Assembly: GCF_000002075.1 (NCBI RefSeq)
Contig: NW_004797570.1
Coordinates: 814,482 to 878,481, forward strand
Direction: 5' to 3'
Length of the DNA: 64,000 nucleotides
Source: Aplysia californica
Taxonomy: Eukaryota
Shown: positions 91-63,282 of the stretch, in pieces
How positions within the stretch are numbered: position 1 is the first letter of the stretch
How the letters are laid out: each line of letters begins with the position of its first letter
Translations under genes and position numbers: made by a program
Notes under the pieces: model-generated
Databases searched by the model: none
Seen by the model: the letters and a program-made list of their open reading frames with translations, nothing else
Told to the model about the DNA's origin: nothing

Positions 91-276
91 CTGCTTGGTG
101 ACCTCTCCCTCCTTGGCCTTGAGGTACATCAGACAGTTACACTGGGCGTTGACCCGTTTCTCCAGCTCAGACACGGCCATCTGAGTCTGCTCGTCGTTCA
201 TTGAGACCTTCTCTGGGCCGCCGGGCATGGCAGCGCGGGCAGATGGCGCGTCCTGGGCTACTGCTGGTGCTGGTAC
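91..276 (-). CDS. Gene A exon: first half of domain 3
   Basis: ctccag|VPAPAVAQDAPSARAAMPGGPEKVSMNDEQTQMAVSELEKRVNAQCNCLMYLKAKEGEVTKQ|gttagt; 186 nt. Confidence 0.87.
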
Positions 277-3200
277 CTGGAGGAGGAAAATGATGTAGTT
301 GTTGTTGTTGTAGTTGTTGTTGTTTCTGTTTCTGTTGTTGTTCCTGTCATAGTAAATGGTGACGATGCTGCTGATGATGACGATGATGATGATAAAGACA
401 ATGATAAAGATAGTGATAAAGATATGATAAAGATAATGATGAAGATTATAGCGTTGTTGTTGTTGTTATTGTTGTTGTTGTTGCTGCTGTTGTTTTTGTT
501 GTGGTCGTAGTTGTGGTTGTGATGGTTATGGTGGCGGTGGTTGTGGTTATGGGTATTGTTGTTGTTGCAGTTGTGGTTATTGTTGTTGTCAATGTTGTTA
601 CTGTTGTTGTGTTCGTTGTTGATGATGTTCTTGTTGGCGATGGAGGGGCTGTCTATCGTGATCATGACATGGTTATGGTGAAGATACTCAACACATATGG
701 GCACTCAACACACATGGGCCCTTTTCTGGACGAAATCAAGGCGATCGATAGAATGGAATTAAAGAGAGTTTAGTTTTAGTAAGAGCTTTGCGGTACTTGA
801 TTGATTGATTGGGTAGATGTTTTACGGCACTATCGACACAATTTTGGTCATTTAAGCGCCATCAGGTTTCACCGCTACAAAATCAGACGTGTTTTTAATA
901 AAGAGTCTCTCGGAGCTCGCAACCGCAAACGATCACACTATTTCAATTATGCTAAAAAGACGAACAAACATTTATTTTTAAAAATGTGTAAATATGGAAA
1001 AGGCTTATTTACATTTGTAATACAATACAAATTTCAGTGTATGTATATATACACGTTGCGGTACTTGCAACACGTAGGTTATGTAAGAGCAGAAGGTTAG
1101 AGGTGTTACTGGAGAGTATAAAAGTAACATACAAAGGAAAGGAGGGAGAGGGATGGTTGATGTTTAATAGGGAACAAGGAGCAAATCATATAGAGGAATA
1201 ACAGGTGGACTTAACGCAAGTTGATAACTGACCAACCACAGCCATCCTCCAACTTCCCACAGAAATCACGGCGATGTGAGTTTTCTCAAGCATACACCAT
1301 GCATAATGATTATTGATGTTTTACGGCACAATTGACACAATTTTGATTACTCACATGGCAGACCACATTGGAGATCTTATAGTTTGGCGTATTTCGGTCA
1401 CTGTACCAAATGTTGGCAGAGCAGGTCTGCACCTGAGGAACGGACAAGGAGGTTATAAATATAATGTATACGTTTGGAATATGGAATAGTTGTGTGAGAA
1501 CATATTATGTGTATGTCTGCACATATGAGCGCGCGTGTGTGTGTGTGTGTGTGTGTGTGTGTGTGTGTGTGTGTGTGTGTGTGTGNNNNNNNNNNNNNNN
1601 NNNNNNNNNNNNNNNNNNNNNNNNNNNNNNNNNNNNNNNNNNNNNNNNNNNNNNNNNNNNNNNNNNNNNNNNNNNNNNNNNNNNNTGCGTGCGTGCGTGC
1701 GTGTGTGTGTGTGTGTGTGTGTGTGTGTGTGTGTGTGTGTGTAATTGTGAGTATATGTTCCTGTATATGCGCGTGTATGCGTTCGTATATGAGCGTGGAT
1801 AATATGTGTATGTACGTGAATGTATGAGTACATATGTCTGTGTATATATGCGGTCATATGTTTATATGCGTACATGGATGCAGACATGTGTATGTGCGTA
1901 CATGTACTCATGTAAGCAGTAGTGTGTAAATGAATGATTGATATATAGATTGATTGATTGATTGATTTATTGATTGATTGATTGATTGATTGAAAGATTG
2001 AGTAAGTGTTTTATGGCACTTTCGAGTCATGTAAGTGCGAAGAAGTTTCATCGCCGCAGATCTATTACTACGTTAATTTGGTTTATTTTCATCAAACTCA
2101 AAAGATTAAGAAAGTGAGAATTGTCAAGTTTAGAAGAAGTTTGAAAGTGGATGTGAAGGATGAGAACGGCAATGTACCTTTTCATGTCACCTATGAAGAA
2201 GACTTCATTCCTATCCCTTTGACTAAACAAACTTTGAGTGATGTATCCCCAGCTGTTAACAATGTTGAATCAACAAACCATGAGATAGAAAATTATCAAG
2301 ATGAATCTGTGGCTAGATCTAGTAATAGTCAGTCAGATATTGTTTCAGACACTGGTAACAGTCAAGATGGTAAGAATAGGCCAAAAAGATCAATCACTAA
2401 GCCTAAACATTTGAATGACTATTATGTTGATGATGAGATTGATCATTATTTGAATGTCACAACAACTCATTATTGCTATGCAATTCATGATGTACCAAAA
2501 TCATACAAAGAAGCTATTTCCTGTGTTGCAGCCGACAAATGGCAAAATGCAATGCAAGGGGAAATGCGTACTCTGGAAGAGAAGGATACTTTTCAATTGA
2601 CTCCTTTACCTCCAGGCAGGGAAGCAGTTGGGGGGGGGTTATTATCAAAGAAGGCCAATCAAATGAAGCCCAATATAAAGCTAGATTTGTGGCTAAGAGT
2701 TATTCCCAGATACCTGATATAGATTATACAGAAACATTCTCACCCACAGCTCGCATGACCTCGATACGTACTTTATTGCAATTGTCAGTGTGTAATGATA
2801 TGAACATACATCAGATGGACGTTTGTTTTGGTTTGTCCCAGGTGTGTCAGCATCGTCGCCCATAAGTGTTTCTTAGCTTTAGTAAATGTTTTACGACACT
2901 TGGAACACAATAAGGTCATTTTAGTGCCGAAGATTAGAGGTGTAACAAGATAGTAATAGATGTATGATTGGAAAGAAGGAGCAAGCCACACCAGAGCACC
3001 CGCCAACCACCCACTTGTATGTGAATAAAGTACTATTTTGTGTGTTTGAGTAGGTGTTTCACGCACTATCGATTCAGTTTCTGTCATAACTTACCAAGGA
3101 AGCATCAGCGGCCACAGAGCATGTCGTCCTGTCGGTAGGGGTTCTGGAGCAAGAGGAGCCGTAGAAAGTTACGTCGGTCACGGTGAACAGGAGGCCGTTC

Positions 3201-62800: not shown

Positions 62801-63282
62801 CCCATATAAACCTTTTAGATCATTGCTTCACTCCTTTTTCAACAGGTCTTGATTATCCATCTCCTTAAGAATTGATAGATATTGAGATTGACAAGCTGAC
62901 AACCAAACTGTTTGATAACTTTCAAAATACTGACAAGTGACAACCTGCTAACCATCCTGCTTTGAGGTTACCATTACATAAATAATCCCAGGCGACCCAC
63001 CTGCTTTGTGACATGAGAGATGTGCAGCAAGGCGTGTCTGTACAGGGAGTTGCTCATTTGGTTGATGTGATCTACCGCCCACATAGCAGCTTTTTGAGTT
63101 TCCATCTCCTCAACTCCAGACTCTTCTTGACCTCCAAGCAGTGACCTCTTCCTTCTCGCTGAGGTCTTCTCCGGAGTTTCATACTCTACACATGGATCGG
63201 ATTCTGTCTTTGTTTTCACAGACCACGTTCCTTCGTTTAACCATGGGTACAGATGTGTCACTTCAACATGGCACACCTTAGC
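47750..63282 (-). CDS. CTSF: Cathepsin F-like papain-family (C1A) cysteine protease with N-terminal cystatin domains; 5'-partial, 13 exons visible
   Basis: Exons 63282-63001, 62402-62286, 61992-61921, 58772-58109, 57384-57274, 56245-56103, 53712-53616, 52765-52685, 52125-52006, 51460-51396, 50741-50654, 49418-49357 and 47824-47750 are all AG/GT-bounded and phase-compatible. Motifs: [11 protein letters not shown] (catalytic Cys), [11 protein letters not shown] (His), YWIIKNSWG (Asn), and propeptide ERFNAQ-type plus [18 protein letters not shown], typical of the cathepsin F/W subgroup. Confidence 0.95.
49357..49418 (-). CDS. CTSF: CTSF exon with the catalytic Asn
   Basis: [21 protein letters not shown]|gtgagt. 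Confidence 0.96.
50654..50741 (-). CDS. CTSF: CTSF exon with the catalytic His
   Basis: [29 protein letters not shown]|gtgagt. Confidence 0.96.
51396..51460 (-). CDS. CTSF: CTSF exon
   Basis: [22 protein letters not shown]|gtaggt. Confidence 0.95.
51780..51920. repeat. About 35-bp intronic minisatellite (4 copies)
   Basis: acaccaaaataagggatttataaacatt. Confidence 0.8.
52006..52125 (-). CDS. CTSF: CTSF exon
   Basis: [40 protein letters not shown]. Confidence 0.95.
52685..52765 (-). CDS. CTSF: CTSF exon
   Basis: [27 protein letters not shown]. Confidence 0.96.
53616..53712 (-). CDS. CTSF: CTSF exon with the catalytic Cys
   Basis: [32 protein letters not shown]. Confidence 0.97.
54065..54805. 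mobile_element. pogo/Tigger-type MITE
   Basis: TA|CAGTGGAAACCATATATAACAGG...CCTGTTATATCAGGTTTCCATTG|TA. Confidence 0.8.
54890..55860 (-). mobile_element. Non-LTR retrotransposon 3' fragment (RT end and C-terminal domain; CR1/L2/Rex-Babar group) in a CTSF intron
   Basis: [12 protein letters not shown] (YADD-like), [45 protein letters not shown]; frameshift between the two ORFs. Confidence 0.88.
56103..56245 (-). CDS. CTSF: CTSF exon: propeptide end and mature N-terminus
   Basis: [12 protein letters not shown]...[20 protein letters not shown]|gtgcct. Confidence 0.95.
57274..57384 (-). CDS. CTSF: CTSF exon: I29 propeptide (ERFNAQ-like and GxTxFxD motifs)
   Basis: (E)[36 protein letters not shown]; phase 1/1. 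Confidence 0.93.
58109..58772 (-). CDS. CTSF: CTSF exon: His/Asp-rich tandem repeat plus start of the I29 propeptide
   Basis: ctgtag|[17 protein letters not shown]([14 protein letters not shown])n...[19 protein letters not shown]|gtatgg; 664 nt, phase 0/1. FxxFxxxYxRxY is the I29 start and joins in frame to the next exon. Confidence 0.88.
58386..58763 (-). repeat. Coding minisatellite, 9 x 42 bp
   Basis: Unit CTTCTGGGTGGAGATGAYCATGATTAYAAACCMCATGGGAAA = [14 protein letters not shown]. Confidence 0.97.
59635..60226. mobile_element. TIR element (MITE), superfamily unassigned
   Basis: TAGCTTGTTCACTTCGTCTGACC...GGTCAGACGAAAGTGAACAAGCTA; the same terminus recurs at about 35844-35902. Confidence 0.7.
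60656..61450 (-). mobile_element. Internally deleted pogo/Tigger element keeping the transposase N-terminal HTH start
   Basis: TA|CAGTAGAACAC...TGTTCTACTG|TA; internal [23 protein letters not shown] resembles the CENP-B/psq-type HTH start of Tigger transposases. Confidence 0.78.
61921..61992 (-). CDS. CTSF: CTSF exon: end of cystatin domain (second disulfide, no PW)
   Basis: ttttag|[24 protein letters not shown]|gtaagt; 72 nt. Confidence 0.85.
62286..62402 (-). CDS. CTSF: CTSF exon: middle of cystatin domain (Q|VING loop, first disulfide)
   Basis: cggcag|[39 protein letters not shown]|gtaaag; 117 nt. Confidence 0.88.
63001..63282 (-). CDS. CTSF: CTSF exon: end of an upstream cystatin domain (PW loop), RRKR linker, first half of the next cystatin domain
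   Basis: tgtcag|[18 protein letters not shown]...DPC...[11 protein letters not shown]...[15 protein letters not shown]...VTKQ|gtgggt; 282 nt, phase 0/0. Confidence 0.9.

Follow-up and report, generated by a model that had tools for sequence, protein, structure and literature searches.

How did a cathepsin F gene (CTSF) and two multidomain cystatin genes, B and A, come to stand head to tail in the genome of Aplysia californica, and how are the free cystatins related to the cystatin domains at the N-terminus of the protease? The genes were read in a window of 64,000 nucleotides (nt), contig C300:814482-878481 (NW_004797570.1), with the reading extended 13 kb upstream and 80 kb downstream. A preliminary description of the window had reported a head-to-tail cluster on the minus strand, and this was borne out by exon models cut by coordinates and by their RefSeq matches. 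The order is CTSF (775 amino acids, aa), gene B (235 aa) and gene A (475 aa), with unbroken frames and AG/GT at all junctions. The CTSF model is identical to XP_005101893.2 (LOC101857656) and the gene B model to XP_035826539.1, named ‘multicystatin’, and three segments of gene A are exact substrings of XP_012939991.1 (LOC101859340, 475 aa). The evidence supports common ancestry of the A and B domains and the pair of CTSF pro-domains, and we consider it moderately probable that both genes go back to an ancient partial duplication, in tandem, of gastropod CTSF 5´ exons, which would have left a free two-domain inhibitor beside its parent.

All three genes lie on the minus strand. CTSF comprises 15 exons and 775 codons. 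Exons 1 and 2 lie past the window end (C300:888758-888462 and 879995-879942; window-equivalent 74277-73981 and 65514-65461) and 13 exons, 3 to 15, lie inside it (47750..63282); the gene encodes a signal, two cystatin domains (D1 and D2), a His/Asp repeat, the I29 propeptide and the C1A peptidase. Exon 3 (63001..63282) holds the C-terminal part of D1, with a long second loop and the distal disulfide, an R-x-K-R linker and the first half of D2. Exons 4 (117 nt) and 5 (72 nt), at 61921..62402, hold the remainder of D2, with Asn in loop 1 and the second-loop Trp lost, and exons 6 (58109..58772) and 7-15 (47750..57384) encode the repeat, I29 and the mature peptidase. Gene B (19181..30025) has seven exons, at 30025-29819, 29045-28992 (54 nt), 28112-28013, 26065-25911, 24626-24516 (111 nt) and 20750-20673 (78 nt), followed by a terminal exon that begins with the stop codon (19183-19181), matching the RefSeq end. 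Gene A (91..9879) has seven exons visible in the window, at 9879-9874, 7263-7069, 6086-6033 (54 nt), 3830-3669, 3205-3095 (111 nt), 1432-1355 (78 nt) and 276-91, and nine readable overall, two of them past window position 1 (locus L004, 8108-8031 and 7391-7233); exon 4 is unreadable in the assembly (N). The last coding exon, of domain 4, was found on another scaffold between gaps (C1175:13357-13434, plus strand), a likely misplacement in the assembly. At least three domains had been claimed for gene A; there are four, and their assignment as cystatins rests on profile matches.

Each of the three genes opens with a short D1, which has the distal disulfide only, followed by a long D2 with four Cys and two disulfides. 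This short-long order is common to CTSF of Aplysia, Elysia, Haliotis, Saccostrea and the representative proteins P0032 and P0044, and to all B-family proteins; P0044, placed sister to the molluscs, shows that the pair occurs on CTSF outside them. A D1 exon of 54 nt is found in CTSF, B and A, and the D2 exons measure 117 and 72 nt in CTSF versus 111 and 78 nt in A and B. A phase-0 intron follows the last Cys of D2, two codons past it in CTSF and one codon past it in B, A and the A-like copies described below. The exon after this intron opens with TAA in B, and a matching acceptor and TAA lie behind A and an A-like gene. Standard type-2 cystatin genes end inside their third and last exon, an ending for which our literature search found no supporting paper. 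Because A and B carry an intron after the last Cys and a stop-first exon instead, the free genes look like a longer gene cut at the post-D2 intron.

The preliminary description had also cited a long loop from a PW motif to Cys in domain 1, similar linkers and similar pre-loop ends. The long loop is real and rare: the distal disulfide spacing is 21-23, with Pro before the last Cys, in 8/8 free D1 domains and 26 and 27, again with Pro, in Aplysia and Elysia CTSF, versus 18-19 in 91/98 non-mollusc short domains, where Pro precedes the last Cys in 0/98. CTSF of Haliotis, Saccostrea and P0044 has a spacing of 19, without the long loop and Pro. The other two likenesses are generic, given that an Arg...hydrophobic-Gly linker occurs in 114/382 non-mollusc domains and a T-K/S-Q pre-loop end in 64/407. 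In D2, 15 residues separate the loop-1 Gly from Cys1 in the free domains (7/9 rows measured, the two B rows by eye), and 14 separate them in 6/8 CTSF D2 and 135/144 non-mollusc domains, none of the 144 having 15. Because this one-residue insertion is common to the free D2 domains, A and B are one family of single origin, not two separate CTSF copies.

Trees were built from concatenated D1+D2 (15 rows), from D2 (26 rows) and, as a quick tree, from all domains (78 rows), with outgroup rows picked by hand (20 proteins filtered at 55% identity for the all-domain tree, nine for D2 and eight for D1); similarity was also ranked among 425 CTSF-borne or multicystatin domains. The all-domain tree grouped domains by position, D1 with D1 and D2 with D2, and the split between short and long domains received 94 in the SH-like approximate likelihood ratio test (SH-aLRT). 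Since short and long domains separate in this tree, neither domain of gene B arose from the other. In the D2 tree, the mollusc CTSF D2 and free D2 domains formed a clade (95/95) that contained a gastropod CTSF D2 clade (88/88), with free D2 placed between bivalve and gastropod CTSF D2. The common ancestry stated above is supported by the grouping by position, the 95/95 clade and the exon structure held in common.

These observations bear on the view that the free cystatins are related to the CTSF pro-domains only by general type-2 homology and came to lie beside the gene by chance or later rearrangement, which we consider very improbable. In its favour are the low identity, just 23-27%, between the A and B domains and those of the adjacent CTSF, the presence of short and long types in insect CTSFs as well, and the generic nature of the linker and pre-loop motifs. 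It does not account for the domain order, the 54-nt exon and the post-D2 intron in common, nor for the D2 clade. The adjacency speaks against it as well. In four protein searches of the own genome, 13/14, 22/22, 10/12 and 12/12 cystatin matches fell in the cluster or its copies, and the three matches outside had E >3 and internal stops. A Pfam search of the genome added one stefin-like locus and one unconvincing match (scaffold C364), where no cystatin was seen when the sequence was read. Within the limited sensitivity of these searches, the type-2-like cystatin genes that were detected all start at a distance of 18 kb from the CTSF stop; searches with PF16845 and with the Haliotis protein P0139 found nothing in this genome, which indicates low sensitivity and not absence. 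The chance of landing within 18 kb of CTSF is ~4e-5 (36 kb over 927 Mb). Given this estimate and the concentration of nearly all matches in the cluster or its copies, adjacency by chance is unlikely. In the intervals between the three genes no further gene was recognised among 37 open reading frames of at least 95 aa, by eye repeats or low-complexity sequence, though short exons could escape such a reading, and no Rfam match was obtained. A metagenome scan confirmed 3/123 candidates, with a CTSF neighbour seen beside none.

If the genes share ancestry, A and B might be recent copies of the 5´ exons of Aplysia's own CTSF, an explanation that is already refuted for B and practically untenable overall. 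In its favour, A domains 2-4 (A D2-D4) and heterobranch CTSF D2 share the loop-1 Asn and the loss of Trp, and the tree does not reject a separate origin of A from heterobranch CTSF (p 0.09); we rejected that origin, as it is contradicted by the insertion and exon lengths that A has in common with B. In the D1+D2 tree (15 rows), the heterobranch CTSFs formed a clade (100/99), and joining Aplysia CTSF with A and B was rejected (approximately unbiased (AU) test, p 8e-14), as was joining it with all free rows (9e-5); another AU test against grouping A and B with Aplysia CTSF gave p 6e-5. These tests rule out a recent origin from this gene. Gene B also has an orthologue in Physella acuta (49% and 54% identity per domain), and no DNA similarity between CTSF and A or B exons was detected at E<=1e-12. 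In the similarity ranking, Aplysia CTSF D2 came 20th to 36th of 425, and the top two matches of both B D2 and A D2 were whelk and abalone CTSF D2. Given the AU rejections, the Physella orthologue of B and the closer likeness of the A and B domains to those of whelk and abalone CTSF, the duplication predates the split of Aplysia from Elysia and Physella. Placements on the mollusc stem, the gastropod stem and the apogastropod stem all pass on D1+D2 (p 0.35-0.52). The proposal that A and B arose by partial duplication of the CTSF 5´ cystatin exons thus holds as common ancestry and fails as two separate copies or as copies of Aplysia's own gene, and its direction is not settled by the trees.

For the direction we turn to intron and loop characters, which moderately favour descent of the free genes from CTSF: their last exon opens with a stop, the free family is derived, and the D1+D2 pair is found on CTSF outside molluscs. 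Under such a duplication, the copy would have been cut at the intron that follows domain 2, and a new last exon with an initial stop would have been recruited. Gene A would have arisen later from a B-type gene by triplication of the phase-0 cassette of domain 2, and A-type units would have been amplified again recently.

The reverse would be capture: an ancestral free two-domain cystatin gave rise to the D1+D2 CTSF when one of its tandem copies joined an adjacent cathepsin, and B is the surviving sister that stayed unfused. Fusion of a cystatin to a cathepsin is the published model for the origin of CTSF, credited to Wex et al. 1999 (PMC2654340, PMC4687129), and these two sources treat both the fusion's history and the role of the cystatin domain in CTSF as unsettled. 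Capture would also suit the canonical motifs of B, as in a conserved ancestor, and the wide spread of the two-domain family, shown by an ESM Atlas cluster of 57 two-domain cystatins, mostly molluscan. The fusion would, however, have to predate the molluscs, given P0044 and the insect-type CTSFs with cystatin pro-domains, yet B D2 is nearest to gastropod CTSF D2; and the stop-first last exon and the 15-residue spacing better fit a derived, truncated gene. We regard capture as unlikely.

Several observations weigh against derivation of the free genes from gastropod CTSF. The intron in the D1-D2 linker differs, being absent from CTSF, phase 1 in B and phase 0 in A, and the post-D2 intron stands one codon apart in CTSF and the free genes. 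The loop pattern is blurred by P0003 (spacing 22) and the bivalve P0032 (spacing 24), both without Pro. Support for joining free with gastropod D2 is weak (66/75), and the AU test passes both free D2 outside all spiralian CTSF D2 (p 0.108), as capture would have it, and all mollusc CTSF as one clade (p 0.52). On D2 alone, free domains with heterobranch CTSF are marginally rejected (p 0.048), though the long D1 loop points there. The domain-level phylogeny that the preliminary description had proposed as a check placed D2 with mollusc CTSF D2; the D1 tree lacked resolution, did not group free D1 with CTSF D1 and gave A D1 an implausible zero-length branch, and among the 425 domains compared with B D1 and A D1, Aplysia CTSF D1 ranked only 202nd and 240th. 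The trees comprised CTSF-borne and multicystatin domains, with no rows for ordinary single-domain cystatins, unlinked to CTSF, from molluscs, vertebrates or nematodes. Finally, a loop-1 Asn, seen in the CTSF pro-domain, is not by itself a sign of lost function, since 16/23 such non-mollusc domains keep the Trp.

What might the free genes do? Cystatins block papain-like proteases through two loops and a segment at the N-terminus (PMC7863939). The N-terminal Gly, the QxVxG loop and a Trp-bearing second loop are all present in B D1, B D2 and A D1, and A D2-D4 keep the Gly and QxVxG without the second-loop Trp. In Aplysia CTSF D1, Lys replaces the loop-1 Gln, and heterobranch CTSF D2 lacks the Trp loop, which is kept in abalone, oyster and P0044 CTSF domains. 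The N-termini of A and B show a hydropathy peak of 3.0-3.1, with values below 2.0 elsewhere, a measure of hydropathy and not a signal-peptide prediction, and both proteins are likely secreted. We infer that B would be an extracellular inhibitor of broad range within the papain family, plugging the active-site cleft with three elements, the Gly segment at its N-terminus, the QxVxG loop and the Trp loop, and that A domain 1 would inhibit in the same manner. A D2-D4 and the heterobranch CTSF pro-domains, in which the Trp loop or the loop-1 Gln is gone, may be weak or re-purposed. Inhibition would thereby have passed largely from the zymogen pro-region to the free gene, and the zymogen domains would then have drifted.

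A complex of B D1 with mature CTSF was predicted with a score of 0.93 versus 0.01 for the best control, with contact agreement of at least 97% between runs and a partner predicted local distance difference test (pLDDT) of at least 92; this mark is reached by 51/78 solved pairs, by 39/65 eukaryotic pairs and by 2/108 mismatched pairs. Residues 18-24, 69-75 and 96-101 of B D1 form the predicted wedge over CTSF Gln580, Cys586 and His722. Cystatin and cathepsin are a textbook pair with solved complexes, and because of these look-alikes the prediction indicates likeness and not specificity. It could nonetheless be cited, together with a linkage apparently older than the Aplysia-Physella split, if the duplication was tandem, for a dedicated and co-regulated module, with A and B retained beside CTSF to restrain it after secretion or leakage. 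We consider this improbable. Exons 3-5 of gene B had zero reads in 2/2 poly(A) libraries (1.3-1.5 billion bases; tissue not identified, reads counted for B and not for CTSF), A and B each start with a first exon of their own and a signal-like N-terminus, cystatins with such a wedge are broad-spectrum (PMC7863939), and linkage can last without selection. Four sequencing runs were mapped on gene B, two RNA runs without exon reads and two that behaved as DNA.

The fold predicted for gene B comprises two independent cystatin domains (pLDDT 78), and the model had 41 PDB matches at E<=0.001, cystatins leading; Foldseek matches include cystatins C, E/M and F, and sequence matches cystatin C and multicystatin. 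Besides the Physella orthologue, its relatives include four transcript-like records. The homologue searches were thin (1, 2 and 9 matches), and the representative-protein search, whose profile included the peptidase, returned mostly CTSFs. One three-domain relative, P0177 (L036), has the order short, short, long and a long poly-Ser linker. The D2-type domains have the two C-terminal disulfides of the type-2 standard and D1 the distal pair only; this makes D1 a short variant that departs from the type-2 standard. Neither gene belongs with the type-3 multicystatins, kininogen and fetuin: both proteins stop one residue past the last cystatin Cys, and those families, with their kinin or fetuin C-terminal region, are described as vertebrate-restricted (PMC2784779). 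A partial duplicate of the 3´ part of gene B exon 6 (20268..20312, minus strand), without the acceptor side and with the donor site kept, sits 400 bases downstream of the true exon.

Further copies lie outside the window. Beyond gene A we found a decayed copy of the 3´ half of gene B and a two-domain A-like gene that is 94% identical to A in exon 2. This region (L004-L006, C300 ~791600-807400) is a segmental duplication of the gene B 3´ half plus an A unit, with a decayed fragment of B exon 5. Scaffold C2010 carries two more A-like copies ~17 kb apart, either paralogues or an alternative haplotype, and the number of A-type copies in this assembly is uncertain.

The kinds of component at this locus are known and in RefSeq, which limits the surprise, and the arrangement appears undescribed: in the literature covered, mostly listings and abstracts outside subscription journals and supplements, we found no description of a CTSF-cystatin linkage. 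Human CTSF, like the Aplysia protein, carries cystatin sequence, I29 and the C1A peptidase on one chain and has splice sites in common with cystatin genes; Aplysia differs in having two cystatin domains, the His/Asp repeat before I29 and free genes for the same domain pair directly downstream. Insect CTSFs of the Manduca type (the Manduca sexta multicystatin procathepsin F of Miyaji et al. 2010 is cited in PMC4398375) likewise have several short and long cystatin domains ahead of the peptidase, but there the domains multiplied inside the zymogen (up to 18), whereas in Aplysia they multiplied in separate neighbouring genes. With type-2 cystatins (MEROPS I25B; cystatin C, chicken cystatin) A and B share the fold, the tripartite wedge, the two disulfides in D2 and the intron after the loop-1 Gln; they differ in their tandem domains, a D1 without the first disulfide and its appendage, the extra post-Cys intron and the lack of the Trp loop in A D2-D4. 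Multidomain cystatins are reported to have arisen several times independently by domain duplication, lophotrochozoans included (PMC2784779), and those of invertebrates resemble the present genes in being secreted-type tandem domains expanded by internal duplication. The two domains of B, by contrast, did not arise from each other; they were inherited jointly, and the pair occurs on CTSF as well; P0139 of Haliotis rubra consists of eight short domains. A cystatin-like protein has been noted in Biomphalaria plasma complexes (PMC8995041).

A bolder reading, possible rather than probable in our judgement, is that the principal family of secreted cystatins in gastropods arose by fission of CTSF, the two-domain cassette of the zymogen being copied into a free gene that has remained next to its parent over hundreds of millions of years and assumed the inhibitory role while the parental domains decayed; molluscs may have done so more than once, the Haliotis multicystatin grouping with CTSF D1. 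If true, fission would reverse the usual story of fusion from cystatin to cathepsin, and the CTSF pro-domain would once have been a working inhibitor. The locus holds one domain pair in fused and in free form, and the inhibitory motifs have been lost in complementary fashion, so that both the direction of origin and the function can be tested. The eight short-type domains of P0139 group with Aplysia and Elysia CTSF D1 (94/91), and this protein is possibly a second free gene derived from CTSF.

By motifs, domains and orthology, the protease gene is assigned to cathepsin F, with peptidase activity predicted. The catalytic Gln580, Cys586, His722 and Asn742 stand in papain motifs (PF00112, E 4e-76), and the I29 propeptide (PF08246, E 8e-15) has the motif spacing E-R-F-N-V-Q, with Val for Ala relative to the ERFNAQ-type motif as defined in PMC2654340. 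PF00031 scored above its cut-off for D2, and a custom profile detected both D1 and D2. In a FastTree phylogeny with no named cathepsin L as outgroup, the protein joined the cathepsin F of Elysia and Haliotis, in the order of the species tree. The R-x-K-R sequence in exon 3 (63147-63158 region) is a furin-type site before D2 that could release D1. Because furin-type sites precede 201/382 internal non-mollusc domains, the site is a general trait of multicystatin CTSFs; genes A and B are without it.

The repeat in CTSF exon 6 (58398-58757, minus strand) has a 42-nt unit in 8.6 copies that are 97% alike, each encoding 14 His/Asp-rich residues. The unit starts like a cystatin N-terminal segment and stands directly ahead of I29. 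Babylonia, P0032 and P0044 have one copy of its core motif, which is expanded in Aplysia (10), Mya (15), Saccostrea (6-7), P0137 (4) and an amphipod (7), and RefSeq isoform X2 of Aplysia CTSF has two units fewer. The repeat may act as an acid-sensitive processing linker or a metal-binding segment. An ESM Atlas search with it gave no usable match, and the motif was not found in a CTSF context in our literature search.

Minor features at 55100-55900, 36400-37000, 11040-11810 and 26300-27180 are decayed retrotransposon-like fragments, recognised by eye, and a high-copy repeat in gene B intron 3 with very deep coverage from DNA runs. An unlinked exon at C19:1971390-1971506 has no intron after the loop-1 Gln and resembles a stefin (type-1 cystatin).

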